Position numbers and translations under genes: made by a program. Below are positions 5,545 to 45,200 of a DNA stretch of 64,000 bases, piece by piece. This DNA comes from a virus. Below the pieces are notes generated by a model. It saw nothing but the letters and a program-made list of their open reading frames with translations. It ran no database searches and was not told where the DNA came from. The stretch lies in IMG/VR virus record IMGVR_UViG_3300017435_000029. One strand, given 5' to 3'. The stretch's first letter is position 1, and each line of letters begins with the position of its first letter.

Positions 5545-5562
5545 CCCGCACACGTCCTAGGC

Positions 5563-9570: not shown

Positions 9571-9585
9571 GCGCCCACGTCCCGA

Positions 9586-9605: not shown

Positions 9606-9635
9606 TTCCCCCTAAATTTTTAGCGGAGTACGAGT

Positions 9636-16707: not shown

Positions 16708-17185
16708 GATCTTCCTGGACTGCGACGGCGTGCTCGCGGACTTCGACAGGGCCGGCGAGATGACCTTCGGCCGCCCTCCCCGCGAGGCGGAGCGCGTCCT
16801 GGGCACTTCGGTGTTCTGGACGACCCTCCAGAACGAGGGCGGCTTCTACCGGCGCATGCCGCTCATGCCGGACGCGATGGAGCTGTACGAGGGCGTGCGG
16901 CACCTGTCGCCGACCATCCTCACCGGCTGTCCCCGAGGCGACTGGGCGGAGGCGCAGAAGGTGGGCTGGGCGGAGGAGCACTTCCCCGGCGTGCCCATCA
17001 TCACCTGCCGCAGCGCGGACAAGCGCGACAGCATCGAGTCTCCGGGCGACGTGCTGATCGACGACTGGCCGCAGTACCGGCACCGCTGGATCGAGCACGG
17101 CGGCGTGTTCATCAGCCACTACGACGCGGCCAGCTCGCTGTCGGCCCTCTGGGCGCACTACCCCGAACTCAAGCGAGGAGAATGA
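16700..17185 (+). CDS. HAD-superfamily phosphatase, 5'(3')-deoxyribonucleotidase-like
   Basis: HAD motif I KIFLDCDGVLADF (DxDGVxxDF, typical of the NT5C family); RBS GAAAGGAAAA before the GTG. Confidence 0.6.
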   Translation: MVKIFLDCDGVLADFDRAGEMTFGRPPREAERVLGTSVFWTTLQNEGGFYRRMPLMPDAMELYEGVRHLSPTILTGCPRGDWAEAQKVGWAEEHFPGVPIITCRSADKRDSIESPGDVLIDDWPQYRHRWIEHGGVFISHYDAASSLSALWAHYPELKRGE

Positions 17186-19568: not shown

Positions 19569-19883
19569 ATGTTCTATCTTTTTAAGAAGCCGAAGGGCAA
19601 GCTGTCGGAGGTGGACTGCAGCGCCGAGGCGTTCCTCGCTTGGGCGAAGGGACGCGACCCGGACGAGGGGTACCAGTTCACCGACTGCACCGACTGTGCC
19701 TTCGCCCGGTACCTGCGCTCTCAGGGCGTCGACGCGAGCGTGTCCGTCGGCACCTGGCGGGAGAGGAAGGGCAGTTTCTACTACCCGTACGACAGGCGCC
19801 TGGACTTCTCCGGCGCTCTGCAGGCGAAAACCATGGGCGAGGCGGTCAGCCTGCTCGAGAAGAACCTCAAGGGAGACAACTGA
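19569..19883 (+). CDS. hypothetical protein (104 aa)
   Basis: RBS CAAGGAGG upstream. Confidence 0.6.
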   Translation: MFYLFKKPKGKLSEVDCSAEAFLAWAKGRDPDEGYQFTDCTDCAFARYLRSQGVDASVSVGTWRERKGSFYYPYDRRLDFSGALQAKTMGEAVSLLEKNLKGDN

Positions 19884-19884
19884 T

Positions 19885-24198: not shown

Positions 24199-24272
24199 GC
24201 CCCTCCGGGGACACAATCGGCGCGCCCCTCGGGGTACGTCGGTCGTGTCCTCGGAGGGGCAACCACCCTTAT
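24199..24272 (+). terminator. putative intrinsic terminator: stem CCCCTCCG...CGGAGGGG followed by a T7 run (TTATTTTTTTCC)
   Basis: Inverted repeat at 24201-24210 and 24251-24260, then seven T residues; it sits at the end of the left arm. Confidence 0.5.
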
Positions 24273-24296: not shown

Positions 24297-24314
24297 CCCC
24301 GTTAAATTAACCCC
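24297..24314 (+). promoter_or_regulatory. conserved element CCCCGTTAAATTAACCCC, copy 3, upstream of the terminase module
   Basis: Exact core 16-mer. It is followed by a leader that is conserved with the one after copy 5. Confidence 0.6.
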
Positions 24315-24527: not shown

Positions 24528-24986
24528 ATGGACGCGCGGAACGCCGTCATTGAGCAGCCCCGAGCGAGCGGCGGCGCGATCGACCACGTGAAGCGCTACC
24601 ACGCCGGGTCCGAGCGGTCGAAGGACAAGCTCAGGCAGCTCAGGTTCGACCCAATAGAGAGGCTCGTGGACGAGTACCACGACATCAACCGCCTGATCAA
24701 GGAGGAGGAGGACTACAGAGACGAGCGGAAGGTGCGGCTGCACCCGGAGAGCGGCAAGGCCGTGCTCTGGCGGCCGGACATGCTGCTCAAGCTCATGGAG
24801 GAGCGCTCGAAGATCTCCGACAGGCTGCTGCGCTACGGCTACGGCAGGGTGCCCGAGGTCAACGTCAACGTGGACCAGGCCCCTCCGCCGTTCATCGTGC
24901 AGACCACCCGCAAGGGCGAGGTCTACCACACCGGCGTGGCGGACATCGACATGGACGAGGTGGAGGACCTGGGGGCCGGTCTCTGA
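24528..24986 (+). CDS. putative terminase small subunit (assigned by position)
   Basis: Lies immediately upstream of the large terminase, to which it is translationally coupled (TGATG). Confidence 0.45.
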   Translation: MDARNAVIEQPRASGGAIDHVKRYHAGSERSKDKLRQLRFDPIERLVDEYHDINRLIKEEEDYRDERKVRLHPESGKAVLWRPDMLLKLMEERSKISDRLLRYGYGRVPEVNVNVDQAPPPFIVQTTRKGEVYHTGVADIDMDEVEDLGAGL

Positions 24987-26344
24987 TGAGCGGCGTCCAC
25001 CTCCACGAGGGCCAGACCGAGGCCTACGAGGACCTGTTCGTGGACCAGCTGCACCGCTTCGTGGTGGTCAACTGCGCCCGCGGCTGGGGCAAGAGCTACT
25101 TCATGGCCGCCTGCGCCGTGACCGCAGCGTACGAGCTCATGGCGCTCCCCGCGACCGTGCCCAACAAGCGCGTCGCCGTGATCGCCCCGACGTACGACCA
25201 GGTGACGGACATCTACTGGCCCGTGCTGGCCTACGACATGGGCCTCGAGGCGCTGGCCGTGAAGTCCTCCCAGGACCAGGCCCGCTTCCTGCTGCCCAAC
25301 AACGTCGAGGTCCGCCTGCTGTCCTACGAGGCGGTCGAGCGGATGCGCGGCAAGGGCTACTACTTCGTGGCCTGGGACGAGGTCACCAGCTGCGTGCGCG
25401 GGCAGGACCCGAAGAAGGCCTGGGAGAAGATCATCAGGCCGTGCATCTCCACCCGCTGGTCCCCGAAGAACGCTGCCCGGCTGGGCGCGAGGTCGGCGGG
25501 CAGGGCGGTGATCGCCTCGACCCCCAACGGCTTCGACTACTTCTACGACCTGTTCAACATGCAGGACGGCGACCCCGCGAACTGGAAGTCGTACCACTAC
25601 GACTACACCGGCTCGCCCTTCCTGGACCCCGACGAGATCGAGTCCATCAGGGGCTCCATCGACACCCGCGCCTTCGCGGCGGAGTACCTGGCCCAGTTCA
25701 AGGACTCGGGCAACAGCGTGTTCTACTGCTTCGACCGCAAGGTCCACGTGCGCAGGGACCTGGAGCCTTTCAGGCCGCCGACCCACAGGACCGTCCAGGA
25801 CGGCGAGGACGTGCACGCCTGCATCGACTTCAACGTCGGCATCCAGGCCACGAGCATCTTCGCCAAGAGGGGCGACCAGATGCACTTCCTGGACGAGCTC
25901 CACGGGCACCCGGACACCGAGCAGCTGGCCGTGGCCCTCAGGGGCCGCTACCCAGGGCACAAGATCTACGCCTACCCCGACCCCAGCGGGCGGGCGAGGA
26001 AGACCTCCAGCCCGGTGGGCACGACCGACTTCGCCATCCTCGAGAGCAACGGGATCAGGTGCCTGGCCCACGCCAAGGCTCCCCCGCTGGTGGACTCCGT
26101 GAACGCCGTCAACGGTCTGCTGATGAACTGCAGGGACGAGTCCCGCATGTTCTTCCACCCGGACTGCAAGCGGACGATCGAGAGCATGGAGAGGTCCCGC
26201 TGGGTCGACAACAACCCGAACACCGCGACCATAGACAAGAGCGAGGGCGTGGAGCACCACTCGGACGGCGTCAGGTACGCCTCCGACTACCTGTTCCCCG
26301 TCAGGAGCGCCAAGAGGGCCTCCGCGCGCGGGTTCAACTTCTAG
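24986..26344 (+). CDS. terminase large subunit
   Basis: Deviant Walker A VVVNCARGWGKS, a Walker-B-like YYFVAWDE, and a C-terminal nuclease region containing DPSG. Confidence 0.85.
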   Translation: MSGVHLHEGQTEAYEDLFVDQLHRFVVVNCARGWGKSYFMAACAVTAAYELMALPATVPNKRVAVIAPTYDQVTDIYWPVLAYDMGLEALAVKSSQDQARFLLPNNVEVRLLSYEAVERMRGKGYYFVAWDEVTSCVRGQDPKKAWEKIIRPCISTRWSPKNAARLGARSAGRAVIASTPNGFDYFYDLFNMQDGDPANWKSYHYDYTGSPFLDPDEIESIRGSIDTRAFAAEYLAQFKDSGNSVFYCFDRKVHVRRDLEPFRPPTHRTVQDGEDVHACIDFNVGIQATSIFAKRGDQMHFLDELHGHPDTEQLAVALRGRYPGHKIYAYPDPSGRARKTSSPVGTTDFAILESNGIRCLAHAKAPPLVDSVNAVNGLLMNCRDESRMFFHPDCKRTIESMERSRWVDNNPNTATIDKSEGVEHHSDGVRYASDYLFPVRSAKRASARGFNF

Positions 26345-28508: not shown

Positions 28509-29909
28509 ATGCCGACGCAAGTAAACCTCCGCAAGCTGCTGGACCGGAAGCAGTGGGAGCCCTGCTCCTTCGCCCCCGGCAACAGCGGCCCCAACACCTT
28601 CGTGGCCGCGAGCAAGGCCGACAGCCACAAGTTCATGGCCACCTCGAGCACGAACGTGTTCATGTACGACCCCCTGGACGACGGCTGGACCTACCTGCCG
28701 AACCCGGCGATGGGCGGCACCTTCGGCGGCGGCACCTGCGGGGGCTGCGGGCTGCAGGGGCCTTCCGGGACCGCCACCGGCGGCGGCGCGAGCTCGATCA
28801 ACACCAACCTCAACCTGCCGATCGACCTGCGCGGCTACCGCGTGCGGATCATCTCGGGCCCTGGGGCGGGCTCCGAGCGCGTCATCCGGTCGAACACCAT
28901 CGGCGCGAACTCGGTCATCACCGTCACCGCGCCCTTCTCGGCCGCCATCACCAGCGCCAGCCAGTACGTGCTGCTGACGGGCCGCTTCTACTTCTTCAAC
29001 GGCGGCACGCTGTCCGCGACGAGCTTCAAGTACTACGACACCGCGACCAACGCGTGGGTGGCCCTCTCGGTCACCGGCCTCCCGGCCTCGTTCGGCACCG
29101 ACGCCAAGCTCATCGTCACGGACTCCGTGGCCACGTACATCTCCGGCACCGCCACCGGGGGCAGCGCCAACACGCTGGTCAACTCGGGCAAGACCTGGGC
29201 AACCAACGCCTGGGCCAACATGCAGATCCGCGTGACCGAGGGCACCGGCGCCGGCCAGGTGAGGACGATCGCCAGCAACAACGGCACGACCCTCACGACG
29301 ACCGCTAACTGGGCCATCAACCCGGACAGCACCAGCAAGTACGTGGTCGAGGGCAACGACGACTACATCTACCTGCTGGGCAACAACTCGACGGCGATGT
29401 ACCGCTACAGCCTGACGGCGAACGCGTGGACCACGCTGGCCCCCACGACGGCCCGCGCCGCGCAGCCCTCCTCGGGCATGACCGCCAACTGGATCAACGG
29501 CGTCACCGCCGCGGACTGGCTGGACGAGAGCGTGCCCGTGAGCAACGGCCGGTACATCTACTCGTTCCGGGGCAACGGCTCCCAGAACCTGGACGTCTAC
29601 GACATCTCCCTGAACACCTGGGTGGCACAGCCCTACGCGCCGGCCAACGACGCGATCGGCAGCTCCGGGTGCGCGGAGAGCATCGGCGGCTTCATCTACT
29701 TGATGCTCGGCTCCGGCGGGCGCATGATCAAGTTCAACATCGCCACCAACACGATGGAGCCCTGCGGGCAGCTCTGGTACTCCCAGGCTAGCGCGATCAC
29801 GGGCGACCGCATGTTCAGCCACTCGTACATCGACGGGGCTACCCGGCTGGACTTCCTGTACTACAACACCGCATCGCAGAACATGCTGTTCCGCATGCTC
29901 ATCATCTGA
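28509..29909 (+). CDS. Kelch-like beta-propeller repeat protein (466 aa)
   Basis: About five repeats of the pattern [RD]YIY/FYF..G........Y.YS...N.W (RFYFFNGG...KYYDTATNAW; DYIYLLGNN...YRYSLTANAW; RYIYSFRGN...DVYDISLNTW; GFIYLMLGS...IKFNIATNTM). Confidence 0.6.
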   Translation: MPTQVNLRKLLDRKQWEPCSFAPGNSGPNTFVAASKADSHKFMATSSTNVFMYDPLDDGWTYLPNPAMGGTFGGGTCGGCGLQGPSGTATGGGASSINTNLNLPIDLRGYRVRIISGPGAGSERVIRSNTIGANSVITVTAPFSAAITSASQYVLLTGRFYFFNGGTLSATSFKYYDTATNAWVALSVTGLPASFGTDAKLIVTDSVATYISGTATGGSANTLVNSGKTWATNAWANMQIRVTEGTGAGQVRTIASNNGTTLTTTANWAINPDSTSKYVVEGNDDYIYLLGNNSTAMYRYSLTANAWTTLAPTTARAAQPSSGMTANWINGVTAADWLDESVPVSNGRYIYSFRGNGSQNLDVYDISLNTWVAQPYAPANDAIGSSGCAESIGGFIYLMLGSGGRMIKFNIATNTMEPCGQLWYSQASAITGDRMFSHSYIDGATRLDFLYYNTASQNMLFRMLII

Positions 29910-29922
29910 AGGAACGAGTGAA

Positions 29923-30195
29923 ATGAGCGACATCGACATGAACGACGACGTGTTCGACCCGAAGCCCGCCGCAGAGGCGCCGGACCGTCCCCAGGTGCTG
30001 ATCGACGACGACCAGAAGTTCGACGTCCAGCCCGAGAACTCGGCGAACCCCGACGCCGCGCCCTTCCGCGACCGCGTGCCGGCCAACTGGATCGTGCACG
30101 AGATGGAGGACGGCCGCGTCGCGGCGCGCAACCCGCTCACCCAGGAGCGCTTCGAGGGCACCCGTGAGGCCCTGAACGAGAAGCTCGCCGGCTAA
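29923..30195 (+). CDS. acidic hypothetical protein (90 aa)
   Basis: ORF with a protein-like translation. Confidence 0.5.
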   Translation: MSDIDMNDDVFDPKPAAEAPDRPQVLIDDDQKFDVQPENSANPDAAPFRDRVPANWIVHEMEDGRVAARNPLTQERFEGTREALNEKLAG

Positions 30196-31832
30196 TGGAC
30201 GAGGCCACCTTCGACCAGCTCAGGGGAGCCGGCTTCCGTAACAGGACCTCAACGGCCAAGACCTCTGCTGCGGCGGAGGTGGCCAAGACCGTCGCCGACC
30301 CGTCGCTGGCCTACGAGAGCCTCGCCTACAGCAGGCTCAAGGCCAGGGCGGTGTGCTCGGGCGAGCAGGCGGTGAAGGACATGGACTCCGTGCTGGACGT
30401 CTACGCCTTCACCAACCTGCTGATCCCCTTCTCCCCGAGCATGACGCAGCAGCAGTACAACTTCTACAAGGCCGAGGCGGAGCTGCCCGGCATCTGCGCG
30501 CAGTTCGCCAAGACGCTCGTGGGCGGCCTCCTGCGCAAGCAGCCGACCCTGGAGCTCCCGGACTCCGTGCCCGACGACGCCAAGAGCTGGATCGTGGACG
30601 AGTTCGGCAAGGACGACAGCCCGCTGTCCGCCTTCATGGACGAGGCCATCTACGAGGAGGTCAAGACCTCCGGCGCGTGGGTCTTCGTCGACTACCCCGA
30701 CGTGGACGACAAGGTGGAGGGCGCGAAGCCCTACCCCGTGCTGCAGCCCGCCGAGGCCGTCATCCGCGCCCGCACCAGGACCAGCCCCACGGGCAGGACC
30801 GTGCTGGACCGCGTCATCGTGCGCGGCTACGTGGAGCGATACGACGAGGACGAGTACGAGTTCCACCCGCGCTACGTGCCCACGATCTGGGTGCACGAGC
30901 TGAACTCAGCCGGCAAGTACCAGGTGCGCATCTTCGAGGTGCCCGAGAGCACCGACAGCGTGGAGAGCACCTCGGGACGCACCCAGGTGGACCCGAGCAC
31001 GACCAAGCGCCCGGTCCTGGTGGACACAGTCAAGGTGGAGATCAGGGGCGAGGAGATCGACATGATCCCCGCCTGGCCGCTGAACGGCAGCATCGACGGG
31101 CAGGAGCCCATGCTGACGCCGATCATCGACAAGGAGGTCGCGCTCTACAACAAGATCAGCCGCCGCAACCACCTGATGTACGGGGCGGCTACCTACACGC
31201 CCGTCATCTCGTCCAACATGACCGACGACAAGTTCGACGACGTGGTCAAGGGTGGGCTCGGCACCTGGCTCCACCTGGAGCAGGGCGACACCGCCGACGT
31301 GCTGGAGACGCCCACCGCGGCGCTCGACAACATGGAGAAGGCCATCGCCGCCGGCTACGAGGAGATCGCTCGGCTGGGCGTCCGCATGCTGGCCCCGGAG
31401 ACGGGCGACCAGAGCGGCGTGGCGCTGGAGCTGAGGAACGCGGCGCAGACGGCCCAGATGGGCAGCCTGAACACGAAGGTCAGCAACGTCATGCGGCAGG
31501 TCATCTGCTTCATGATCAACTGGGAGTACGGCCTGGACATCAAGGTCGCGGACGTCGACTTCGAGCTGTCCAGCGACTTCAACCCAACGCCGCAGGGGCC
31601 GGACTGGCTCAGGCTGGCCACGGAGTGGTACCAGCAGGGCCTGCTCCCGCGCACCACGTGGCTGCTGATCCTCAAGCAGAACGACATGCTGCCGCCGGAC
31701 TACGACGACGAGGACGGCCAGAAGGAGATCAACGCCGACGACCGCATCGTGTCAGCCCGCGAGCAGAACGACCAGCAGCAGGACAACTTCGCTGCCGGGA
31801 TGGAACAGAAGCTGAAGACCCAGGAGAAGTAG
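30195..31832 (+). CDS. putative portal protein (assigned by position and size)
   Basis: 545-aa protein located between the terminase and the MuF-domain gene, the canonical terminase-portal-MuF order. Confidence 0.55.
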   Translation: MDEATFDQLRGAGFRNRTSTAKTSAAAEVAKTVADPSLAYESLAYSRLKARAVCSGEQAVKDMDSVLDVYAFTNLLIPFSPSMTQQQYNFYKAEAELPGICAQFAKTLVGGLLRKQPTLELPDSVPDDAKSWIVDEFGKDDSPLSAFMDEAIYEEVKTSGAWVFVDYPDVDDKVEGAKPYPVLQPAEAVIRARTRTSPTGRTVLDRVIVRGYVERYDEDEYEFHPRYVPTIWVHELNSAGKYQVRIFEVPESTDSVESTSGRTQVDPSTTKRPVLVDTVKVEIRGEEIDMIPAWPLNGSIDGQEPMLTPIIDKEVALYNKISRRNHLMYGAATYTPVISSNMTDDKFDDVVKGGLGTWLHLEQGDTADVLETPTAALDNMEKAIAAGYEEIARLGVRMLAPETGDQSGVALELRNAAQTAQMGSLNTKVSNVMRQVICFMINWEYGLDIKVADVDFELSSDFNPTPQGPDWLRLATEWYQQGLLPRTTWLLILKQNDMLPPDYDDEDGQKEINADDRIVSAREQNDQQQDNFAAGMEQKLKTQEK

Positions 31833-31833
31833 A

Positions 31834-32295
31834 GTGCTCGACGAGGTCAAGTTCATGAGGGCGCGCCCGTACCCGGTCTCGGTGGGCGTCGTCGACAACA
31901 AGAAGGCCTTCCGTAAGGCGCTCAAGGAGATGGGCGTCCCGAAGAACATGCGGGACACGGACCCCAACGGCTACGCCACGACGCACTTCTTCGGCACCCC
32001 GAAGGGCACGTTCGTCGTCATGCAGTTCCCAAAGGACATGACCAAGAACGCCGAGGAGATGTGCCCCGCAAGCGTGATCGCGCACGAGTGCATGCACGCT
32101 GTGCAGATCATCTTCCAGACGGTGGGCGAGGACAGCCCGAGCATGGAGGCCGAGGCGTACCTGCTGGACGAGATCGTCGAGTTCGCCTTCCGCGAGCTCG
32201 GCTACGCCGTCGTCAAGCGGGACCAGCTGGCGGCGCAGGCTGAGGAGCCCGCCGAGGAGCAGATCGAGATGGACCTACCAACGAAGGACGACTGA
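31834..32295 (+). CDS. small HExxH-motif protein (possible zinc metallopeptidase)
   Basis: Contains IAHECMHAVQ, plus an E about 25 aa downstream. Confidence 0.5.
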   Translation: MLDEVKFMRARPYPVSVGVVDNKKAFRKALKEMGVPKNMRDTDPNGYATTHFFGTPKGTFVVMQFPKDMTKNAEEMCPASVIAHECMHAVQIIFQTVGEDSPSMEAEAYLLDEIVEFAFRELGYAVVKRDQLAAQAEEPAEEQIEMDLPTKDD

Positions 32296-32296: not shown

Positions 32297-35200
32297 ATGG
32301 CCGAGGCCGTCAACGCAAACACACAGATGTACGATCGCGTGATCGATCGCGCCGCCATGATCCGCATGTACGAGGATCGTGTGCAGGGTAAGGTCACCCT
32401 GACGCTGGACGGTCACGAGAAGCGCCTGGACGACCTTGTCCGGGCAGCGCGCACCGACGTCAAGGGGCTGGACCGGCTGAGGGAGGCCGTGGACCAGGAG
32501 CTGCAGCGCACCTACCAGGAGGCGCACGCCGTCACCAAGAGGTCGCTAGTGGATCTGGCCGTGGACCAGCTGTCCTTCGCCTACCAGAACGTCGAGGTCG
32601 CCATGGGGCCGATCTGGCGCACCGCCCGCCCGACGCGGAGGGTCGCCGAGGAGATCGCCCTGGAGCGGCCGCTGTACGAAGACCGGACGCTGTCGCAGGG
32701 GTGGGCCGGCGTCTCGCTCTCCGAGAGGAAGCGGCTGGACGCCCTCATCCGCAGGGGCGTGGCCCAGGGTTGGACCGTGGACGAGATCGCCCTAGAGGTC
32801 CGCCGAGGCAACGTACACAACATCACGAGGATGCAGGCCAGGACGCTCGTCACGACGGCGGTCACCAGCGTGCACAACCAGGCAGATCATGAAGTCTACA
32901 AAGCGAACGCGAAGGCCCTGCAGGGGTGGCAGTACGTGGCTGTTCTGGACAGCCGTACTACTTCTCTATGCGCCCATCGCGACGGACATATTTACCCGAT
33001 CGGCGACGTGGAGCACCTACCTCCAGCTCACTGGAACTGTCGCAGCACTTCTGTTCCTGTGTTCAAGAGCTGGGAGGACATCGCCAACCTCGAGGGCGCG
33101 GCGGAGGTCCGCAAGAGGAACCTGCGCAACCTGACCCCGGAGGAGCGCGCCTTCTACGACGGCCTGACGCCGGCTCGAGAGGGCTACGAGGCGTGGCTCA
33201 AGAGGCAGCCCGTGCCCGTACAGCTCAGGCACCTGGGCGAGTACAAGAAGGTGGAGATGCTGAACGCCGGGGAGCTGTCCCTGGACAAGTTCACCAAGCC
33301 CGACGGCGCGACGCTCGGCATCCGAGAGCTGCGAAAGCTCACCGACCAGGACGCCGTGGTGCCGGGCGACACGAGGCGCTTCGCCAACGCGAAGGCGCGA
33401 CTGGACGCGATGCGCCTGGGCGCCTCCACGCCCGAGGACCTGTACAAGATGCAGGGCACCCTCGTCGACTACTACCTCCTGCAGGCGGGCGACCTGAACG
33501 GCAACCTCGCCGTCACCAGCTACCGCGGCACCCTGCTGCACAACAAGCGCAACACCCGTAACCGCGTGCTCTCGTCGCCCCCGACCGAGGAGCAGCTGCG
33601 CTACAACCCGCTGACCCAGCGCTACGACGACGTGCGCATCTACCAGCCCAACGCCGACGTCTACGACGGGGCGCTCAGGCGCGTGAGGGACAGCGAGGAC
33701 CTGTTGCAGGGCGACAAGGACTTCGTGCTGTCCACGCTGGACAAGCTGTCCATGAAGATGGGCATGAACGAGCGGGCCGCGGTGGCGGACAACCTCCGCG
33801 TGACCATCGGCCGCTTCCGCAAGAACGGCGAGGTCTGGGGCAACTTCAAGGCCGTCTCTAACAGCCAGATGAAGTTCGACGTGATGAACGTGTCGGACGC
33901 CATCGAGACCCAGCTGCGCCGCGACGGCGACGTGCTGAGGAAGCTGTCCAGGGACGTGTACGTGGACCCGGTACTCGGGGAGACCCAGCTGAGCGAGCTC
34001 GGCGGCGACCTCGTGAAGAACATCAAGGAGCGCAACAGGTGGGACGACACGGTGGCCCCGGCCATCGCCCGAGAGCTCCGCGACTACTTCGACCTCGCCA
34101 TCCCGAAGAAGATCCGCTCCCGCCTGTCCGAGAGGCAGGTGCAGGGCTTCTACCAGCGCTTCGCCGAGAGGCTGGGCGCGGCGGACAGCCCCGACAGGGA
34201 CGCCCTGGCAGTGGCGCTGGGCCGCGACCTGTACAACAGCGCGAACTACAACGGCAACCGCCGGGACTGGTACAACCTGGGGCTCAAGCTCCTGGAGCAG
34301 AAGGCGGGCCACCTCTTCCAGATCGACACCTTCGGCGTGCAGAAGCGCCGGATGCGGTCGAGGCTGAGCGGCGCCTACTTCGGGCCGTACTACGACACCG
34401 TCAGCTACTACATCAAGGTCGAGGACCCGCGCATCGTCCGCTACGCCCGCCTCAACAGGCAGGTGGAGATCGGGCTGCGCGTGCCCGTCACGTCCGAGGG
34501 CCAGAGGCTGACGCTCCGGGAGGGCTACAAGACGTACTTCGTGAGGGACGGGCTGGGCTGGTACGACACCCGCCTTCCGATCGTCTCCTCGTCGAGCTTC
34601 AGCAACTTCCCCACCGAGTTCGTGGACAAGGACTTCGTGTCCGCCATGAACTGGGCGTCGGAGACTAAGTACAAGATCGACCCGGAGTTCCACGAGTTCA
34701 TCCGCAAGCTGCTGTACTTCAAGGACGACCGCGGCAACGCGAAGAAGTACGACGAGCTCAACCACTACCGGAAGTACATGCTGGGGCGCGGCGACGCGTA
34801 CGAGCACTTCAAGACGATGCAGTGGCTCACCGAGGGCGACCGCACGTTCTCCAACCACACCTTCATCGACATGCGCGGGCGCGTCTACTCGCGGGGCTTC
34901 GTGACCCCGCAGAGCGGCGAGAGCTTCCGCCCGTTCTTCAACACCGAGCGCAAGAAGCCCCTCGGGGAGGCCGGGCACGACGCCCTGGTCGACCAGATCG
35001 GCTCCTTCCTCGGGGGCCTGACCGACTACTTCGAGGGCAACTTCGACTCGCTCACCTTCGTGGGGCGCAGGCGGATCGCCGAGAAGTGGCGGCCCGAGCT
35101 GAGGAGGCTGGGTCAGGCCATGTTGTCGGGCAAGCCCGCGGACATGCGCTACGTGCTGGAGAGCCCGGTCGTGGCCCAGGTGGACGGCGAGGAGCTCGGC

Positions 35201-36955
35201 AAGTTCTTCCGCTTCGCAATGGAGGTGGCCCGCATCGACGGTCACCTGCAGGACGGCGGGACGCTGGGCAACTTCTACACGGCGCTGGCCATGGAGCAGG
35301 ACGCCTCGTCCTCGGGGGCGCAGATCATCGCGCTCACGACCAGGAACAAGCAGCTGGCCGGCCTTTCGAACGTGGTGCCTACCAACCAGAAGCGCCGCCT
35401 CTACGACGAGATCGCGGCGGCCACCTACAACGACCCGCGCTTCAAGGTGCTGAACGAGAGGCTCGGCCTCAAGCTCAAGGACCTGCAGAAGGCCGCGAAG
35501 GCCCAGAACATGGTCACGTTCTACGGCGCGGGCGAGAAGACCGGCATCCTCAACGTCGAGGGCAAGCTCGGCAAGGTGCTCAACAAGCGCGAGGGTACCT
35601 TGGTGGTGACCGCCTCGGACAGGCAGAAGGTCTTGAACGAGATCGACGCCCGCATCGCACGCGTGGAGCGGTACGACCCCGAGGGCGGCCAGATGCTCCG
35701 GGTGCTGCGCCAGGACGTGCGCGACATCTTCAACAAGGGGCAGGACCCCGGCGACGACATCATGGAGTCGCTGTACTTCCTGGACCCCGCCACGAAGGAG
35801 CTCGTGGAGAAGCTCACCCGCAGCTACGAGCAGGTGGTCACCCCGGACGACTTCAAGGGCATCGCCAAGATCATGTCCGAGCACCTGGCGGAGCAGGTCC
35901 CCATCCTCAAGGACTTCACCCGCTTCTTCGGCCGCCTCGCGAGGGCGTACCTGGAGACGGCCAAGCCCGCCAACGCCGACTTCGACTGGAAGAAGATCGC
36001 CACGCTGGCGACGAGGGGTTCCGAGAGGGGCAGGGCCAAGCTGCCTCCCCTCGTGGCCGAGACCCTGGGGCTCCCCGCGAACACCCCCGTGACGGAGCAG
36101 CTGCTGTCCCGCCTCTTCACCGACTGGAACCCCAACTCGGGGCTGGCCCAGCTGGTGTTCGGCGCTAAGAAGTCCGACACGAGGGCCGTGGGCAGACGCC
36201 TGTGGAAGCTGGACCTCGGCAGCGCCCCCGACATAGCGTCCAAGTACCTGGGCACCGACGTGCTCAAGGACGCGACGAAGGCGAGCGAGGTCAGCCTGCT
36301 GTACACCGACCAGAACGACCTGCCGAAGAGCTGGTCGAACGTGCCGTGGGTCAACTTCGACGGCAAGACGATCGAGCAGAACTTCACCCAGAGCTTCGAG
36401 GAGAGACTGGTCTACAAGGACAAGGAGGGCAACTGGATCACCAACATCCTGATGATCCCCCAGAAGACCGAGGCCAGCTACTGGGACCAGGTGCTGAACA
36501 AGGCGGGCTCCATCAACGACATCGCGGACGCCGGCAAGGCCAACACCGCGTTCGCCGTGAACGGGAACCACTCGAACGACGCCGTGATCGTCAAGCGCTT
36601 CCACCTGTGGGGCCGCGACAACAACGTGCCGACCAGCACGGTGCACGACGCGTTCTTCACCCACATCGCGGACCTGCTGCCCGGCAGGACGGCCCTCCGC
36701 GGCATCTACGCCAAGACCCTGGACAAGAACGTGGTCAAGATGACGCTCGACGAAATGAGGGCGCGCGGGCTGTCCAAGGAGTTGTACGACGCCTTCCTTG
36801 ACGAGGCCATCGACAAGGGGCTGATACCCGTCGCGGGTCGGTCTGTCGTCGGCGGGAAGGTGCTGGCCGAGGAGGACATCCTCACCCAGGACGATGTGCT
36901 CGAGGAGGTCCCCTACGACTTCGAGCGTAACTACGGCTGGTACGGGGTCGGGTAG
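32297..36955 (+). CDS. fusion of a Mu-F/SPP1-gp7-like minor head domain (N-terminus) to a T7-like single-subunit DNA-dependent RNA polymerase (C-terminal, about 1000 aa)
   Basis: MuF signature VLDSRTTSLCAHRDGHIYPIGDVEHLPPAHWNCRST. RNAP motif A LAMEQDASSSGAQIIALTTRNKQLAGLSNVVP (T7: [30 protein letters not shown]), motif B KAQNMVTFYGAG (T7: KRSVMTLAYGS), and motif C TVHDAFFT (T7: IHDSFGT). The C-terminal ...VPYDFE is analogous to the T7 FAFA foot. Confidence 0.85.
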   Translation: MAEAVNANTQMYDRVIDRAAMIRMYEDRVQGKVTLTLDGHEKRLDDLVRAARTDVKGLDRLREAVDQELQRTYQEAHAVTKRSLVDLAVDQLSFAYQNVEVAMGPIWRTARPTRRVAEEIALERPLYEDRTLSQGWAGVSLSERKRLDALIRRGVAQGWTVDEIALEVRRGNVHNITRMQARTLVTTAVTSVHNQADHEVYKANAKALQGWQYVAVLDSRTTSLCAHRDGHIYPIGDVEHLPPAHWNCRSTSVPVFKSWEDIANLEGAAEVRKRNLRNLTPEERAFYDGLTPAREGYEAWLKRQPVPVQLRHLGEYKKVEMLNAGELSLDKFTKPDGATLGIRELRKLTDQDAVVPGDTRRFANAKARLDAMRLGASTPEDLYKMQGTLVDYYLLQAGDLNGNLAVTSYRGTLLHNKRNTRNRVLSSPPTEEQLRYNPLTQRYDDVRIYQPNADVYDGALRRVRDSEDLLQGDKDFVLSTLDKLSMKMGMNERAAVADNLRVTIGRFRKNGEVWGNFKAVSNSQMKFDVMNVSDAIETQLRRDGDVLRKLSRDVYVDPVLGETQLSELGGDLVKNIKERNRWDDTVAPAIARELRDYFDLAIPKKIRSRLSERQVQGFYQRFAERLGAADSPDRDALAVALGRDLYNSANYNGNRRDWYNLGLKLLEQKAGHLFQIDTFGVQKRRMRSRLSGAYFGPYYDTVSYYIKVEDPRIVRYARLNRQVEIGLRVPVTSEGQRLTLREGYKTYFVRDGLGWYDTRLPIVSSSSFSNFPTEFVDKDFVSAMNWASETKYKIDPEFHEFIRKLLYFKDDRGNAKKYDELNHYRKYMLGRGDAYEHFKTMQWLTEGDRTFSNHTFIDMRGRVYSRGFVTPQSGESFRPFFNTERKKPLGEAGHDALVDQIGSFLGGLTDYFEGNFDSLTFVGRRRIAEKWRPELRRLGQAMLSGKPADMRYVLESPVVAQVDGEELGKFFRFAMEVARIDGHLQDGGTLGNFYTALAMEQDASSSGAQIIALTTRNKQLAGLSNVVPTNQKRRLYDEIAAATYNDPRFKVLNERLGLKLKDLQKAAKAQNMVTFYGAGEKTGILNVEGKLGKVLNKREGTLVVTASDRQKVLNEIDARIARVERYDPEGGQMLRVLRQDVRDIFNKGQDPGDDIMESLYFLDPATKELVEKLTRSYEQVVTPDDFKGIAKIMSEHLAEQVPILKDFTRFFGRLARAYLETAKPANADFDWKKIATLATRGSERGRAKLPPLVAETLGLPANTPVTEQLLSRLFTDWNPNSGLAQLVFGAKKSDTRAVGRRLWKLDLGSAPDIASKYLGTDVLKDATKASEVSLLYTDQNDLPKSWSNVPWVNFDGKTIEQNFTQSFEERLVYKDKEGNWITNILMIPQKTEASYWDQVLNKAGSINDIADAGKANTAFAVNGNHSNDAVIVKRFHLWGRDNNVPTSTVHDAFFTHIADLLPGRTALRGIYAKTLDKNVVKMTLDEMRARGLSKELYDAFLDEAIDKGLIPVAGRSVVGGKVLAEEDILTQDDVLEEVPYDFERNYGWYGVG

Positions 36956-36962: not shown

Positions 36963-36979
36963 CCCGTTAAATTAACCCG
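36963..36979 (+). promoter_or_regulatory. conserved element CCCCGTTAAATTAACCC, copy 4, upstream of the scaffold and capsid operon
   Basis: Exact core; a small hairpin CCCGCaaGCGGG follows it. Confidence 0.6.
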
Positions 36980-37088
36980 CAAGCGGGCGCGACAGGCTGT
37001 GCCTCACCCGCGCTCCCTCGCGGACAACATTCCAGGCGACGGGCTGTGCCCTTAGCCGCATGCGAGCTGTGCTCGAAGGAAGACACGA

Positions 37089-37814
37089 ATGAAGGTGAAT
37101 CCGAAGCAGATCGAAGACCCCGACAACGAGGGTCAGATGATCGACAACCCGAACTACGACTCGACCAAGGACGAGGACGGCAACCCGATCGAGGGCGGCG
37201 GAGACGACGACGACGAGGACGACGCTCCTGCAGGCCAGACCGAGATCGAGAAGGCGGTAGCTGCCGCCCTGAAGCCGATCAAGGCCAAGCTGAACAAGGC
37301 CTACGAGGAGCGCAACACCGCGCTGACCGAGAAGGCCAAGCTCGAGAAGGCCGAGCGTGACCGGGAGACCCAGCGCCTCAAGGACGCGGGCGAGGCCGAC
37401 AAGGCACACGCACGCGAGCTCGAGGACCGCGACCAGGAGCTGGAGCAGCTCCGCGAGGCCAACGTCAAGCTCACTCGCGACCGCGACGTGGGTGACGCGC
37501 TGGCAGCGTACGACTTCAAGACGCCCCGCGCGAAGGCCAACGCGATCCGTGACATCACGGAGGACCTGACCCGCAACGAAGACGGCACTTGGACGACGCG
37601 GGCGGGGGAGTCGATCGAGGAGTTCGCCAAGGCTTTCATGGAACAGGAGGATAACTCCTACCTGCTCAAGCCGAAGCAGAACCGTGGATCTGGCACGGAC
37701 CGCACCAAGACCGACCAACAGGTTCGCCAGGACGGCAAGCCGAAGTCGTTGTTCGACATGTCCACCGAGGACGTGATGCGCAACATCCTTGCGGGCAAGC
37801 CGCCCCAGGGATAA
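37089..37814 (+). CDS. putative scaffolding protein
   Basis: Acidic, coiled-coil-rich 241-aa protein immediately upstream of the major capsid gene; RBS GAAGGAAGACACGA. Confidence 0.6.
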   Translation: MKVNPKQIEDPDNEGQMIDNPNYDSTKDEDGNPIEGGGDDDDEDDAPAGQTEIEKAVAAALKPIKAKLNKAYEERNTALTEKAKLEKAERDRETQRLKDAGEADKAHARELEDRDQELEQLREANVKLTRDRDVGDALAAYDFKTPRAKANAIRDITEDLTRNEDGTWTTRAGESIEEFAKAFMEQEDNSYLLKPKQNRGSGTDRTKTDQQVRQDGKPKSLFDMSTEDVMRNILAGKPPQG

Positions 37815-37836: not shown

Positions 37837-39021
37837 ATGCCCGCACTCCAGGTACCGCCCGGTGCCGAGAACTTCGTTCTTCGTTCGACCATCGGCGCGT
37901 ACAGCGACGAGGCGTACACGAACGCTAAGAAGATCTCCACCACGGCGGTCGTCGGCGGCAACTCGCTGATCGACAAGAACACCGAAACCTTCGTCGGCCA
38001 GATGCGCTGGTTCACGCCGATGAACCCCGTCATCAACATCGCGTCGATCACCGACCCGACCGACGGTCTGTACAACGACTTCGCGAGCGAGTTCTCGCAG
38101 TACATCAAGACCGCGCGCACGTGGGGCGCCAAGCGCCGCAACCTGAGCGAGCTGATCACCAAGGTCGACGACATCAAGCAGATGTCGAAGAGCTTCGGCG
38201 AGCACCGCGCGCAGGACGAGGACAACGCCGTACGCGCCGTGCTCAAGGGCGTGGCCGTCGCCGAGATCCTCCACGGCGCAGGCACCGCAGGCGGCGGCGC
38301 AGGCAAGGGCGGCCAGACGTTCTACAACGACCCGAACGACAAGAAGTTCGGCTTCTACGTCGACCTCGGCAACGACAAGCTCGTCGAGGACCGCGGCTCG
38401 TACGAGGGCGCTGCCCGCGCCGAGGCGATGATCCGCGCGGTCGGCATGGCCTACAAGGACTACGAGCCGGACTACATGTACTGGGTCATCGACCCGGCCG
38501 TCCGCGCCAGCATCCGCTCGGCCAACCTGATCGACGGTGACAAGGTCGTCGACGGCGACGTCGAGTTCGAGACCGTGTTCAACGGCAAGTTCCGCCTCCT
38601 GCACTCGCGCGCGGACACCTCGTTCTCGCCCGAGGAGATCGCTGCCCTGAACGGCGGCGGCGGCGTCGACATCGTCGGCCGGTACACCTCGTACCTGATC
38701 CTGCCGGGCGCGATCGCCATGGAGCAGCTGGACATCCCGAACCCGGTCGGCGTGGACAACCGCGAGGCCAGCTACCACGGCACCGGCGTGGCGGAGATCT
38801 GGCACCGCTGGGGCTTCGTCATCCATCCGGGCGGCTACACCTGGGCTGGCGACGAGGAGCACTTCCCGACCAACCAGGACTACGCCTCGGTCCGCGTGGG
38901 CAGCACGACCAAGCGCGTCGCTGACCTCCAGGCCGGCGACCACGCGACCGTAAAGGGCGTCTGGCAGCGCAAGACCGCCTCGGTCCTGTCGCTCGGCATC
39001 CTGCCCGTCTTCCACGGGTAA
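37837..39021 (+). CDS. putative major capsid protein (HK97-like, assigned by position)
   Basis: 394-aa protein that follows the scaffold; RBS AAGGACACGAATAG; Gly-rich loops. Confidence 0.65.
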   Translation: MPALQVPPGAENFVLRSTIGAYSDEAYTNAKKISTTAVVGGNSLIDKNTETFVGQMRWFTPMNPVINIASITDPTDGLYNDFASEFSQYIKTARTWGAKRRNLSELITKVDDIKQMSKSFGEHRAQDEDNAVRAVLKGVAVAEILHGAGTAGGGAGKGGQTFYNDPNDKKFGFYVDLGNDKLVEDRGSYEGAARAEAMIRAVGMAYKDYEPDYMYWVIDPAVRASIRSANLIDGDKVVDGDVEFETVFNGKFRLLHSRADTSFSPEEIAALNGGGGVDIVGRYTSYLILPGAIAMEQLDIPNPVGVDNREASYHGTGVAEIWHRWGFVIHPGGYTWAGDEEHFPTNQDYASVRVGSTTKRVADLQAGDHATVKGVWQRKTASVLSLGILPVFHG

Positions 39022-40881: not shown

Positions 40882-40956
40882 GGGGAGGTCGTCCAGTAGG
40901 TAGGACTCCGGTCTCCAAAACCGGCAACTCTGGTTCGAGCCCAGACCGCCCCGCCA
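40882..40956 (+). tRNA. tRNA-Trp (anticodon CCA), 75 nt, CCA end encoded
   Basis: Hand-folded cloverleaf: acceptor GGGGAGG/CCGCCCC (one A.G mismatch), D arm GTCC-AGTAGGTA-GGAC, anticodon arm CCGGT-CTCCAAA-ACCGG, variable loop CAAC, T arm TCTGG-TTCGAGC-CCAGA, discriminator G, then CCA. Confidence 0.75.
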
Positions 40957-42176: not shown

Positions 42177-42236
42177 CCTACACCCCTGCTAGGCTGTTAT
42201 GTCTGGCGGGGGTTTAATTTTAGAGAAGGAGGTACT

Positions 42237-45200
42237 ATGTCGGGCGTTATTATCGACGTAGAAACGAACTCTGAGAAGGCCAAGAGCGACCTGCGTTCAC
42301 TGAACCGGTCGCTGGCAGACATGGTACTGTCCGGCAACAAGGCCGGTCGCTCGCTGTCCACCGTGGACAACGGGCAGTTCAAGCAGCTCGACAAGAGCGT
42401 GCAGCGGTCCACCGAGAGCATGAAGAGCTTCGGTCGCTCCGGCTCCTCCTCGCTGAGGGCCGTCGCCAGCGACACCGCCGCGCTCCGGGCCAACATCGAC
42501 ATCCTCAAGGGCTCCGTGCTCGCGGTCGCGGGCGTCTTCGCGGCCACGCAGGGCGCTAGGCTCTTCACCCGCGCGGGCGACGACCTGCTCGAGATGCAGA
42601 ACCGCCTCAAGCTGGTGACCGAGGGCACCCGCGAGCTGGCCACGCGCCAGCGGCAGCTGTTCTCGACCGCGCGCGACACCCGGACCTCGTTCGCGGCCAA
42701 CGTCCAGATCTTCACGACCTTCTCGAAGGCGCTGGAGAAGGCGAACGTGTCGGGCGACCGGGTCGTCAAGATCAACAAGACCATCCAGCAGGCGGGCACC
42801 CTCTCGGGCGCCTCCGTGGAGGGCCTCAACGCCGCGCTCATCCAGCTCGGCCAGGGCATCGGCTCCGGCGTCCTCCGCGGCGAGGAGTTCAACTCCGTCA
42901 TGGAGCAGATGATGTACCTCGGCAACGGGCTCGCGAAGAGCCTCGGGGTGAGCATCTCCCAGCTGCGCAAGATGGCCAACGACGGTGAGCTGACCACCGA
43001 GAAGCTGGTCGGGGCGCTGGAGAAGATGGCGTCCACCACGGAGCGCGACTTCCAGAAGACCGCCGTGTCGACGTCGAAGGGCATCGCCTCGCTCCGCCAG
43101 TCGCTGGCCTACTTCTTCGGAGACCTGAACCAGACCGTCGGCGTCAGCCAGACGATGGGCTCGGCCTTCCAGAAGATGAGCGAGCGGGTGAGCTTCGGGG
43201 CGGACGGCATGGTGATCCGCCTGACGACGGTCCGCCGAGCTTTCAAGAACTACTTCGACCAGCTGCGCACCGTCGCCGGCTCGGGGTTCGACCTCAAGAA
43301 GGCGTTCTACCTCAGCGACGACGACCGCGTGAACGAGACCCAGCGCGCCCTCAAGGAGCGCAGCGCCTCGATGGTCAAGCGCATCCAGGAGCTCATGCGG
43401 GGCCAGCGCGACGCCGACTCGCAGGCGGGCAACCTCGTCAGCAAGCTCTTCGGACGAATCAAGCGTCCGTCGAAGGAGGACGGGGGCTTCTTCGACATGG
43501 GCGACACCCGCCGTACCGTCCGGGCCATCGTCGACACCTCCGCCCAGATCGCCAAGGCGGTCGAGACCACGGGCTGGATGATCAAGCGCATCGTCCCCAC
43601 GGTCCGCACCCCGATGATCCGCTTCCGCGAGGAGATCCTCAGCAGCTTCGCCGTCACCAACAAGGAGATGGAGACCTCCGTCTACAAGAAGATGCTGCCC
43701 CTCATCCGCAAGGTCGAGGTGGCGCGCGACGCCTTGACGGTGGGTATCAACGACGACGCGGCGCCCCGCGCCTTCGTGGAGCTGTTCAAGTCGGCTGACA
43801 TCGAGCAGTTCGCGGAGCGCCTGTCGCGCCTGAACGACCTGATGGACAACCACTTCATCCGCTGGAACAGCATGGGCTACTTCCTCGGGGAGAAGCGCCG
43901 CGCCCTGGTCTACAGCTGGCTGTTCCCGACGCAGGACCTCCTGGTCAAGCTCGGTCTGATGCAGAACCGGCTGTTCATGATCCGCGACACCAAGCTGGAT
44001 CGCACGGTCGCGTACTTCAAGCTCATCGGCGACATGATCGCCCGCGCGTACAACGACCTCGTAGCGCCTGACCTGAACCTCTTCGCCTACAAGGTGAAGA
44101 TCGGCATCCTCGTGGTCGCCAAGACCGCGCTGGACATGCTCAAGGATACCTTCAACTTCGCGAACGGCAAGGCCCTCGGGGCCGGTCTCGTGAAGGGCGT
44201 GGGGGCGGCGCTCGGTGCCGTCGTCTCGGTGGCTAAGCGGCTGGTCAGCTTCGACTTCGGCTCAGACGCCGAGAGCAAGAAGCTCGCCGCCCGCCTCCGC
44301 GACTCACTCATGGGCGCGATGGCGAGCATCCCCGGCTTCTTCGGGGGCCTGGTGACCGGCATCGGCCGTCAGCTCGCCGACGCGTTCGAGAGCATCGACT
44401 TCTCGGCGCTGCTGGACGGTCTGCGGGGCACCCTGACCGCGGCCGTGGGCTGGGTCAAGAAGATGTTCGATGACATCCTCGGGTACACCGACAAGCCGCT
44501 GGCCTCGGTGGAGCGGCGCGTTCGCGCGTTCGGGGACCGCGTCAAGGGTGTCTTCTACGACGCGTGGGACGCGGTCGTGGGCCACAGCTACTGGCCCGAC
44601 CTCGTGGACGACGTCAACGACTACACTAAGCACCTGTTCAAGTCGAACAAGCTGGTGGACCAGTTCAAGGAGATCATTCTCCGCAGCTTCCGCAGCCTGT
44701 ACGAGTCCGTCTCGAAGATGGGCGGCAAGGCGGCGGACACTCTGAGTCAGGTCAGCCTCACCATCCGCAAGGTGGACTGGGGCCAGAGCGCCAAGAACAT
44801 CGCCGGCCAGCTTGGCACCGTGCTGTACGCCGCCTTCACGATCCTCCGCTCGAGCTCCGGCCCGCTGCGACTGATCTCGGCGGCCTACCTCCTGTCTATC
44901 ATGGACACCGCGACGGGCGGCCTGCTCCGCAACCTCGCGCCGACCATCGGCGACGTGGGCGGTGCCATGGGCGCCCAGCTGGCGGTCATGATGGGCAAGG
45001 GCCTGTTCGAGGGCTTCGTGCTCATCGGCCACGCGCTGCCTAAGTTCCTGGAGTCGATGTTCGTCAACCTGGGGCAGGCCACCTTCGGGTTCGACCTGTT
45101 CGGCAACATCTTCCGCGCGCTGGACAACTTCGTCCCGGTGTTCAGCAACAACATGATCGGGGCCATCGCCGCCATCACCGTGGCGTGGCTGAAGTTCACC

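Follow-up and report, generated by a model that had tools for sequence, protein, structure and literature searches.

A MuF minor-head domain fused to a T7-fold RNA polymerase in long-tailed phages, a candidate virion-delivered transcription enzyme

Why would a phage encode an RNA polymerase among its head-assembly genes, and might that enzyme travel in the virion to begin transcription in the next cell? The question is raised by a stretch of 64,000 nucleotides (the window) from the IMG/VR virus record IMGVR_UViG_3300017435_000029. A single uninterrupted open reading frame (ORF) on its plus strand (32297–36955) runs from an ATG start through 1552 codons, with codon-position GC of 0.62/0.40/0.95, as for genuine genes in this 66% GC window. 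The initial annotation, made from the sequence alone, gave this ORF the same coordinates and length and read its product as a MuF-type minor-head domain joined to a complete T7-like single-subunit RNA polymerase (RNAP), encoded in the head operon and carried in the capsid. Start codon, length and coding signature all agree with that description, and Pfam, PHROG, alignment and structural modelling concur on the fusion. To our knowledge, virion-borne RNAPs occur in only a few phage lineages (N4-like, crAss-like, phiKZ/AR9-like and P23-45-like), and each such discovery has altered understanding of early infection in its group.

The N-terminal part of the protein is a head-morphogenesis module of the MuF, or SPP1 gp7, type (amino acids 1–359; 32297–33373, plus strand). 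Pfam Phage_Mu_F (PF04233) matches its core at amino acids 149–251 (E = 2.4e-14; 54.4 bits against a curated cut-off of 29.6; profile positions 5–110 of 112). The PHROG family phrog_241, 'head morphogenesis', matches amino acids 6–359 with E = 1e-69, and a dozen further minor-head families match too. The motifs LDSRTTSLCAHRDGH (amino acids 217–231) and PPAHWNCRS (amino acids 242–250) stand within residues of about 150–260, where the initial annotation had located them. An AlphaFold2 model of amino acids 1–420 has a predicted local distance difference test score (pLDDT) of 83, falling below 50 at amino acids 354–359 and 410–420. Compared by Foldseek with the PDB, which offered no solved MuF structure, the model had no significant neighbour (best E = 0.45).

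The remainder, from about amino acid 500 to 1552 (33797–36952, plus strand), is predicted by modelling, Foldseek and hhalign to comprise the N-terminal domain, palm, fingers and thumb of a single-subunit RNAP. Motif A, DASSSGAQ (amino acids 1002–1009; 35300–35323), is aligned by BLASTP and hhalign to T7 DGSCSGIQ, with D1002 equivalent to T7 D537. Motif B, KAQNMVTFYGAG (amino acids 1068–1079; 35498–35533), sets K1068 and Y1076 against T7 K631 and Y639, the Lys-to-Tyr spacing in KAQNMVTFYG being equal to that in T7 KRSVMTLAYG. Motif C, HDAFFT (amino acids 1450–1455; 36644–36661), is aligned to T7 HDSFGT, with H1450-D1451 equivalent to H811-D812. BLASTP against T7 RNAP pairs DMRGRVY with DWRGRVY, DASSSGAQ with DGSCSGIQ (D537) and VHDAFFT with IHDSFGT (D812). 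Between motifs B and C, a beta-hairpin region that corresponds to the specificity loop of T7 (amino acids 1348–1387; 36338–36457) is aligned to T7 residues 725–770 and modelled as strands (model residues 948–987). All of these lie on the plus strand. In an alignment of 32 homologs with identities down to about 30%, D1002, K1068, Y1076, H1425, D1428, H1450 and D1451 are invariant and align to T7 D537, K631, Y639, H784, D787, H811 and D812, respectively; G1077 of motif B is likewise invariant. The palm motifs thus occur in the order first noted, and the catalytic aspartates of motifs A and C are present in every homolog aligned.

Profile and structure comparisons extend the resemblance over the whole domain. 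Pfam RNA_pol (PF00940) matches only amino acids 1401–1490 (E = 2.6e-7; 30.3 bits against a cut-off of 22), and PHROG RNA-polymerase families match amino acids 854–1082 (phrog_414, 'RNA polymerase', E = 1.1e-18); by its profile matches the protein is a member of both PF00940 and PF04233. The profile of the 32-homolog alignment finds T7 RNAP among PDB sequences, where it aligns in four collinear segments (E = 2.8e-7), and hhalign of the family profile with T7 RNAP residues 397–877 gives a probability of 96.7% (E = 4.3e-10, 449 columns), in line with the RNA_pol or T7 match that the initial annotation had expected of this region. An AlphaFold2 model of amino acids 401–1552 has a pLDDT of 80.5 and a predicted template-modelling (TM) score of 0.77. 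The 50 best PDB structures listed by Foldseek are all T7 or human or yeast mitochondrial RNAPs, aligned over more than 1000 columns (E = 5e-18 to 3e-15; TM about 0.5 per target), with POLRMT and T7 RNAP at the top (E = 5e-18 to 1e-17), as the proposed comparison with T7 RNAP had anticipated.

The term 'T7-like' holds at the level of fold and motifs and not beyond. With the whole protein as query, phmmer found no match among PDB sequences, and T7 RNAP is reached by the family profile only. Searched against 1.84 billion representative proteins, amino acids 401–1552 retrieved 156 matches, all from the protein's own family; the matches examined included no T7-like RNAP of canonical length, and every long match aligns the polymerase part to its C-terminal region, at least 370 residues from the N terminus. 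About 170 residues are extra relative to T7 between motifs A and C, including an insertion of about 115 amino acids modelled with low confidence (amino acids 1230–1345). The protein ends in ...NYGWYGVG, not the T7 FAFA 'foot', and the Tyr and Gly of this aromatic-Gly tail are invariant across the 32 homologs. On sequence and model, the C-terminal 1050 or so amino acids are a complete but highly divergent single-subunit RNAP of the T7 fold with intact catalytic residues, which by every sequence criterion should be active.

The fusion is widespread. A word-indexed protein search returned 334 clusters at 90% identity with matches to it. The best 120 of these are 56–100% identical and about 1540 amino acids long, carry both PF04233 and PF00940 in all but one case, and come from contigs that reach 80–90 kb. 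An identical copy of the protein is present on further metagenome contigs (P0001). Among annotated phage records, full-length homologs occur in EBPR siphovirus 1 (54% identity; EBPR, enhanced biological phosphorus removal) and in the roseophages DSS3_VP1 and DSS3_PM1 (29% each); the two roseophages belong to the Naomviridae, whose DNA has deoxyuridine (dU) in place of thymidine (dT) (PMC8323127). A second search seeded with the DSS3_VP1 protein added 146 clusters, with the MuF domain in all those listed and an RNA_pol match in most. Across the 240 listed proteins of both searches, the precomputed annotation has Phage_Mu_F in 240 of 240 and RNA_pol in all but about 25, and five of the six most divergent representatives tested (25–28% identity) retain the N-terminal MuF domain. 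The sequences thus point to about 480 protein clusters bearing the MuF-RNAP fusion, in two deep clades.

Relatives of the locus span 33–66% GC. In 185,579 species genomes there were two matches, both in one gammaproteobacterial metagenome-assembled genome (MAG) on a 74-kb, phage-sized contig; this near-absence from the species genomes suggests a phage family that is lytic and free-living. The initial annotation had called the source an actinophage. That label is unsupported, because none of the relatives (alphaproteobacterial roseophages, the phage from an EBPR metagenome, the gammaproteobacterial MAG contig and metagenomic phages of 33–66% GC) points there. In 50,697 phage records, megablast detected no match to the gene. 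Homologs bear only the source names 'SPP1 gp7 family putative phage head morphogenesis protein', 'minor head protein-like protein' and 'minor capsid protein'. Full-text searches, covering literature outside subscription-only sources, found no description of a MuF-RNAP fusion as a polymerase, and an RNAP fused to MuF is absent from the lists of a survey of MuF toxins (PMC5576092) and of a survey of polyvalent proteins.

In many relatives the orthologous gene is interrupted. Frames shift at recurrent positions equivalent to amino acids 248 or so (the MuF PPAHWNCRS motif), 695, 877, 1055–1075, 1426 and 1451, and several of these sites coincide with the active centre: 1055–1075 is motif B, 1426 adjoins H1425, and 1451 is the His-Asp of motif C. 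Group I introns (Rfam RF00028, 58–98 bits) lie at the breaks in relatives (L055 8468–17159, L038, L035, L037, L034, L043, L046 and L001 11198–12049), with up to six in one locus (L055), and in EBPR siphovirus 1 an HNH endonuclease gene sits inside the motif B interruption. The gene in the window is free of introns. Mobile introns tend to insert at the best-conserved positions of phage enzyme genes that are essential. Their presence at the catalytic motifs thus fits an essential, strongly conserved enzyme gene. Many homologs also have in-frame inserts of 70–165 amino acids in the loop before motif A (P0020, P0024, P0085, P0118, P0063 and P0312, at positions equivalent to amino acids 985–990 or so and about 1105). 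They are mutually unrelated, and one has a ParB-like ...IDGLHR... motif. We rejected the idea that they are inteins, as their sequences are unrelated and lack Cys/Ser...His-Asn boundaries; they are accessory domains in a surface loop.

The fusion gene occupies the classical MuF slot, and the gene order is that of the structural operon of a long-tailed siphovirus. Upstream lie the portal gene (30195–31832; phrog_145, E = 3.8e-54; Pfam DUF4055) and an ORF of 153 amino acids (31834–32295; phrog_1365, E = 9e-15, a family annotated as of unknown function); downstream are the genes for the scaffolding protein (37089–37814; phrog_206, E = 1.8e-11) and the major capsid protein (37837–39021; phrog_247, E = 1.6e-17), all on the plus strand. 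The portal–MuF–scaffold–capsid placement given by the initial annotation agrees with this slot, although it left out the small ORF between portal and fusion. The order portal, small ORF, fusion and scaffold/capsid recurs in DSS3_VP1 and EBPR siphovirus 1. In DSS3_VP1 a tRNA-Asn gene sits between the portal and MuF-RNAP genes.

This phage also encodes a second, free polymerase. Contigs that overlap the right end of the window (2 mismatches in 11.3 kb) allowed us to read past it. Beyond the tail genes come a probable lysis cassette, about 25 small genes and then, about 7.2 kb after the last window gene, a canonical T7-like RNAP of 744 amino acids, here termed RNAP2 (L061 17488–19722, window-equivalent about 70144–72378; PF00940). 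The small-gene cluster also holds a MazG-like gene and a gene with a WYL domain. DSS3_VP1 has the equivalent arrangement of tape measure, run of small genes and an annotated 732-amino-acid 'RNA polymerase' (gene 00056), which is 29% identical to T7 RNAP over residues 267–883 and ends in FAFS. The fused and free RNAPs of one phage share only about 23% identity over 200 amino acids, and by sequence they are old, distinct lineages, both kept in the two clades. Within the 64-kb window no second RNAP was found by tblastn. A 718-amino-acid phrog_1735 protein (19696–21852) was considered for this role and rejected, as it has no similarity to the DSS3_VP1 RNAP2.

Two polymerases raise the question of which promoters each would read. 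The motif CGTTAAAYT occurs seven times in the window, always on the plus strand and always in gaps between ORFs, against an expectation of 0.07; none of 100 shuffles reached seven. Five of the copies form class I and two class II. The class I 16-mer CCCGTTAAATTAACCC occurs as a tandem pair (4801–4816 and 4847–4862), ahead of the terminase module (24298–24313), 8 nt past the fusion stop codon and upstream of the scaffold and capsid genes (36963–36978), and past the tail genes ahead of a membrane-protein-like ORF (63547–63562). Identical or with one or two nucleotides changed, it stands directly 3' of the orthologous gene in relatives of 33–66% GC. The copy at 24298 lies just past a terminator-like hairpin (24254–24270), the two together making a terminator-then-promoter module boundary. 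Class II has the consensus cacgtcc..gcac.gaCGTTAAACTGCYCC with CGTTAAA cores at 5568 and 9592; its members are cacgtcc..ggcac.gaCGTTAAACTGCCCC (5551–5581, plus strand) and, with a conserved leader, CGTTAAACTGCTCC...CCTAAATTTTTAGCGGAG (9576–9628, plus strand), and degenerate copies (family D7) occur in the early region beyond the window. In DSS3_VP1, about 13 copies of ATAGGnTnCGTTAAAGAGGGGGA (the CGTTAAAG class) precede phoH, portal, ribonucleotide reductase and replication genes; their shared CGTTAAA core and T3-like ...TTAAAG ending suggest a T7-type promoter.

A third class, CGCGGAAAAGC..CATCTTATATGATATCC, is concentrated elsewhere. Its sole window copy, ATCTTATATGATATCC (9097–9112, plus strand; 0.01 expected), is joined by three in the small-gene region beyond the window, at window-equivalent positions of about 64.7, 68.6 and 68.8 kb, 1.3–5.4 kb upstream of RNAP2. 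In 15 relatives (33–52% GC) the core GGTATCTTATATGA, preceded at a spacing of N5-6 by AACGCGGAAA, is found in one to three plus-strand copies 0.8–3.8 kb upstream of RNAP2, and none of the loci retrieved around the MuF-RNAP gene contains it. In DSS3_VP1 two copies of the similar GGCATCTATAATGA head the early region and a third lies elsewhere. No hairpin is conserved among the class III elements. At L061 12100–12123, the first copy beyond the window has immediately after it a stem-loop with a perfect 10-bp stem, GGGAGGTCTC-TTCG-GAGGTCTCCC, and then a T-rich tail; this structure could be a transcript 5' stem-loop or an attenuator. A simple scan of the coding strand of the late and early regions for sigma-70-like promoters found none.

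Thus the seven CGTTAAAYT elements first reported are real and lie at module boundaries, whereas their assignment to the fused enzyme does not follow, for there are two RNAPs in this phage and no fewer than two conserved promoter classes. RNAP2 is an equally likely or likelier user of the CGTTAAA class, which fronts the middle and late modules (terminase, capsid and lysis) and reaches about 13 copies in DSS3_VP1. By analogy with N4 and P23-45, we tentatively assign the few-copy class III to the virion enzyme and the many-copy, module-boundary class to RNAP2.

Taken together, these observations lead us to propose, at a probability of roughly 55%, that the gene encodes a virion RNAP on a MuF packaging handle, acting in an N4-like two-polymerase cascade in which class III promoters are used first. 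The fusion protein would be made late, with the head proteins, and a contact between MuF and portal would bring a few copies into the procapsid, much as one or two copies of SPP1 gp7 bind the portal (PMC5576092). At the next infection it would leave the capsid with the DNA and transcribe the early cluster of about 25 small genes between the tail/lysis genes and RNAP2, its most probable start sites being class III, AACGCGGAAA-N5-6-GGTATCTTATATGA. This cluster ends in RNAP2 (744 amino acids), which would then transcribe the middle and late modules from the CGTTAAA-core promoters of class I (CCCGTTAAATTAACCC) and class II. Because all genes lie on one strand, transcription may also help to pull the genome in, as in T7 and N4. 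We infer packaging, ejection, the pairing of promoters with polymerases and the temporal order of the cascade.

The N4-like role already suggested by the initial annotation remains the most economical reading of the locus, and it gains support because a second, non-fused RNAP has its own promoter class upstream. A second, non-virion-type polymerase gene downstream of a distinct promoter class is found here, in 15 relatives and in DSS3_VP1; in N4 and P23-45, too, the virion RNAP transcribes a gene for a further RNAP that is not carried in the virion (PMC5512222, PMC10770324). The wider proposal, that a global family of long-tailed phages runs a two-polymerase cascade fully independent of host RNAP, with a MuF-delivered T7-fold enzyme as its first polymerase, we rate at about even odds.

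Several points weigh against this virion-RNAP proposal, and delivery into the cell would be its weakest link. The initial annotation took it as given that MuF proteins are ejected with the DNA, but in the MuF-toxin literature the entry of MuF cargo into cells is a hypothesis (PMC5576092). We found no head protease able to free the polymerase from its MuF handle. Co-ejection of SPP1 gp7 was reportedly not detectable in vitro (Vinga and colleagues, 2006). We found no virion proteomics for DSS3_VP1 or DSS3_PM1, and the Naomviridae paper contains neither virion mass spectrometry nor mention of an RNA polymerase. The promoter assignment is vulnerable as well: class III looks T7-like (...TATA-T|GA), so that the assignment could be reversed; a class I element also lies 3–6.6 kb upstream of RNAP2 in most relatives; degenerate CGTTAAA-like elements occur inside the early region too; and class III might be read by a host sigma factor.

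Three other readings were weighed. The injected MuF-RNAP might itself read the CGTTAAA-core class I and II elements and drive every module, including the early cluster from 63547, leaving class III or some narrower role to RNAP2. The near letter-for-letter conservation of the class I 16-mer at 33–66% GC, directly past the MuF-RNAP stop codon, fits such a pairing, as does the class I element 2.9–6.6 kb upstream of RNAP2, from which an injected enzyme could reach that gene by read-through; and class III, ...C-T-TATA-T|G, resembles canonical T7-type promoters and would suit the canonical RNAP2. Yet an injected enzyme that used class I would turn on the terminase, capsid and lysis modules simultaneously, the roughly 13 CGTTAAAG-class copies with a T3-like ...TTAAAG start in DSS3_VP1 form the pattern of a main, abundant polymerase, and class III is limited to the stretch just upstream of RNAP2, like known virion-RNAP promoters. 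We therefore think this reversal of roles unlikely, though worth keeping in view.

A different departure holds that the fusion never leaves the producing cell: tethered through MuF to the portal or procapsid, it would couple late transcription to the initiation of packaging, or prime replication, with encapsidated copies as by-products. T7 RNAP is known to take part in DNA packaging and in the processing of concatemers, and T7 and mitochondrial RNAPs prime replication. These precedents, together with the retention of SPP1 gp7 in the capsid reported in vitro, the co-expression of the fusion gene with head genes and the presence of a dedicated non-fused RNAP for ordinary transcription, favour such a role. 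Set against them, the known capsid- or tail-borne phage RNAPs all act after injection, and RNAP2, having its own promoter class and no sigma-70-like promoter nearby, needs a pre-existing phage polymerase; the fusion is also very old (the clades share about 29% identity), which argues that the MuF linkage is central to its function. This possibility seems to us quite improbable. Least credible, and very improbable indeed, is the reading in which the polymerase part has decayed into an inactive remnant whose sole use is as ballast inside the capsid or as an ejection protein. Its case would be the very low similarity to characterised RNAPs (no phmmer match in the PDB, a Pfam match of 90 residues), the low-confidence insertion of about 115 amino acids (1230–1345) and the WYGVG end in place of T7 FAFA. 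However, the catalytic and NTP-binding residues are invariant in 32 homologs at about 30% identity, the whole fold is confidently predicted and matches T7 and mitochondrial RNAPs, and group I introns target the catalytic motifs.

Returning to the proposed virion RNAP, its closest analogue differs with the property compared: N4 gp50 by function, MuF toxins and the P23-45 RNAP by architecture, and T7 and mitochondrial RNAPs by fold. N4 gp50 (Schitoviridae) is a T7-fold RNAP that forms part of a bigger virion protein, synthesised late, packaged and put to work on early genes (PMC5512222), and the fusion would share that packaging; a second phage RNAP for the next gene class and a low promoter copy number are further likenesses. 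However, gp50 has 3500 amino acids, injection and encapsidation regions of its own at the N and C termini, a metallopeptidase, hairpin promoters, a podovirus setting and no MuF, whereas the fusion has 1552 amino acids, a MuF N terminus and siphovirus-type tail genes; and RNAP2 here is one chain of 744 amino acids where N4 RNAPII is a heterodimer. Homology to the N4 mini-vRNAP was not detected (hhalign against gp50 998–2103, probability 0.1%, E = 0.52), N4 is absent from the PDB profile matches, and the sole sequence trace of the N4 enzyme is a weak PHROG match (E = 1.3e-4). Because sequence, size and context all differ, the fusion is not placed in the N4 vRNAP family.

The T7, T3, SP6 and mitochondrial RNAPs (PF00940) share with the fusion the fold, the A-B-C order, the catalytic residues, DxRGRxY and the specificity-loop-like hairpin, but the fusion is only about 13% identical in structural alignment, forms its own sequence family, bears a 500-amino-acid N-terminal extension with a head-protein domain, and is encoded by a structural-operon gene rather than an early one. 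MuF/SPP1 gp7 proteins and MuF toxins have in common with it an N-terminal Phage_Mu_F domain, a gene near the portal and C-terminal cargo. The known toxin cargo comprises an ADP-ribosyltransferase, RelA/SpoT and nucleases (PMC5576092, PMC5512222, PMC7302621), whereas here the cargo is a polymerase of about 1050 amino acids rather than a small toxin, and the family looks lytic. Thermus phage P23-45 gp96 is a virion RNAP fused to a structural protein in a very-long-tailed siphovirus, a status that the fusion would share, and it transcribes pre-early genes including that of the non-virion RNAP from a dedicated AT-rich promoter class (PMC10770324). The P23-45 enzymes are of the two-barrel, cellular type and fused to the tape measure, in contrast to the T7-fold (Pol A-type), head-protein-fused enzyme of the window. 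AR9/PBS2 and phiKZ-type phages also pair a virion-carried with a non-virion polymerase, but theirs are multisubunit two-barrel enzymes of jumbo myoviruses, and we know of no MuF fusion among them. In the DNA of AR9 and PBS2, dU replaces dT, as in the Naomviridae.

If the proposal is correct, a large, environmentally widespread siphovirus lineage joins the list of phages with virion RNAPs, and the MuF minor-head domain can deliver a folded enzyme of 120 kDa, which would directly support the injection of MuF cargo. It would be the first transcription enzyme shown as MuF cargo and the second independent T7-fold virion RNAP besides that of N4, and it would help to account for transcription of the dU-containing Naomviridae genomes. 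Two new orthogonal polymerase/promoter pairs with short, sharply defined promoters, conserved across hosts of widely differing GC, would also be of use in synthetic biology. The hypothesis can be tested at once, since Ruegeria pomeroyi DSS-3 supports the growth of both DSS3_VP1 and DSS3_PM1. For annotation, a polymerase is concealed in hundreds of database entries labelled 'head morphogenesis protein' or 'minor head protein-like protein'.

The leader of the scaffold gene, just past the fusion, carries a further conserved feature. Three small hairpins with a 3-nt TGT loop, aggcTGTgcct, gggcTGTgccc and cgagcTGTgctcg, lie at 36994–37075 on the plus strand. In relatives (L002, L005–L056), two or three hairpins with TGT (sometimes CGT) loops and covarying stems of 4–7 bp occur within 250 bp after the fusion gene, for example gagtTGTactc, gggcTGTgccc and taagtTGTactta, the last hairpin abutting the Shine-Dalgarno sequence. 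They were found in 25 of 31 relatives, including DSS3_VP1; the total is 45, whereas their frequency elsewhere is 0.04 per 250 bp. In shape they resemble the N4 promoter hairpins (5–7 bp stem, 3-nt loop), which stand upstream of early genes, but they precede the late scaffold gene. We rejected the TGT-loop hairpin as a genome-wide N4-style promoter: with four on the plus and five on the minus strand it is not enriched, and it is confined to one intergenic region. The leader hairpins may act in RNA stability or processing, or may bind a protein.

The rest of the window is consistent in its orientation, the plus strand holding all the credible genes. The late operon that contains the fusion begins with the large terminase gene, TerL (24986–26344; phrog_2, E = 1.3e-31; Pfam Terminase_6N). 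Between terminase and portal lies a gene for a Kelch-repeat protein of 466 amino acids (28509–29909), an odd domain in an odd location for a phage head module. The major capsid gene is followed by those for a head-tail adaptor, the major tail protein, the tape measure, the distal tail protein and a tail protein of about 3125 amino acids with an ILEI-domain match (53206–62595). The tape measure (42237–52037) contains a lytic transglycosylase-like segment (amino acids 2650–2800 or so), and its 3266 amino acids imply a very long tail.

In the left arm (1–24000) we noted genes for a DNA ligase (135–1151), a cysteine-dioxygenase-like protein (6055–6609), a 5'-3' deoxyribonucleotidase (16679–17185), an RNA ligase (17545–18528) and the 718-amino-acid phrog_1735 protein already mentioned (19696–21852), which belongs to a conserved family of unknown function. 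No DNA polymerase or primase/helicase was seen among left-arm ORFs of at least about 150 amino acids; such genes may lie beyond the window. A scan for related loci seeded with the DNA ligase gave no match, and neither did a search of the JGI metagenome collection for an exact 46-mer taken from the end of the window. Amid the tail genes lies a tRNA-Trp (CCA) gene (40882–40956), and a terminator-like hairpin with a strong 13-bp stem stands on the coding strand at 42182–42213, immediately before the tape-measure gene.

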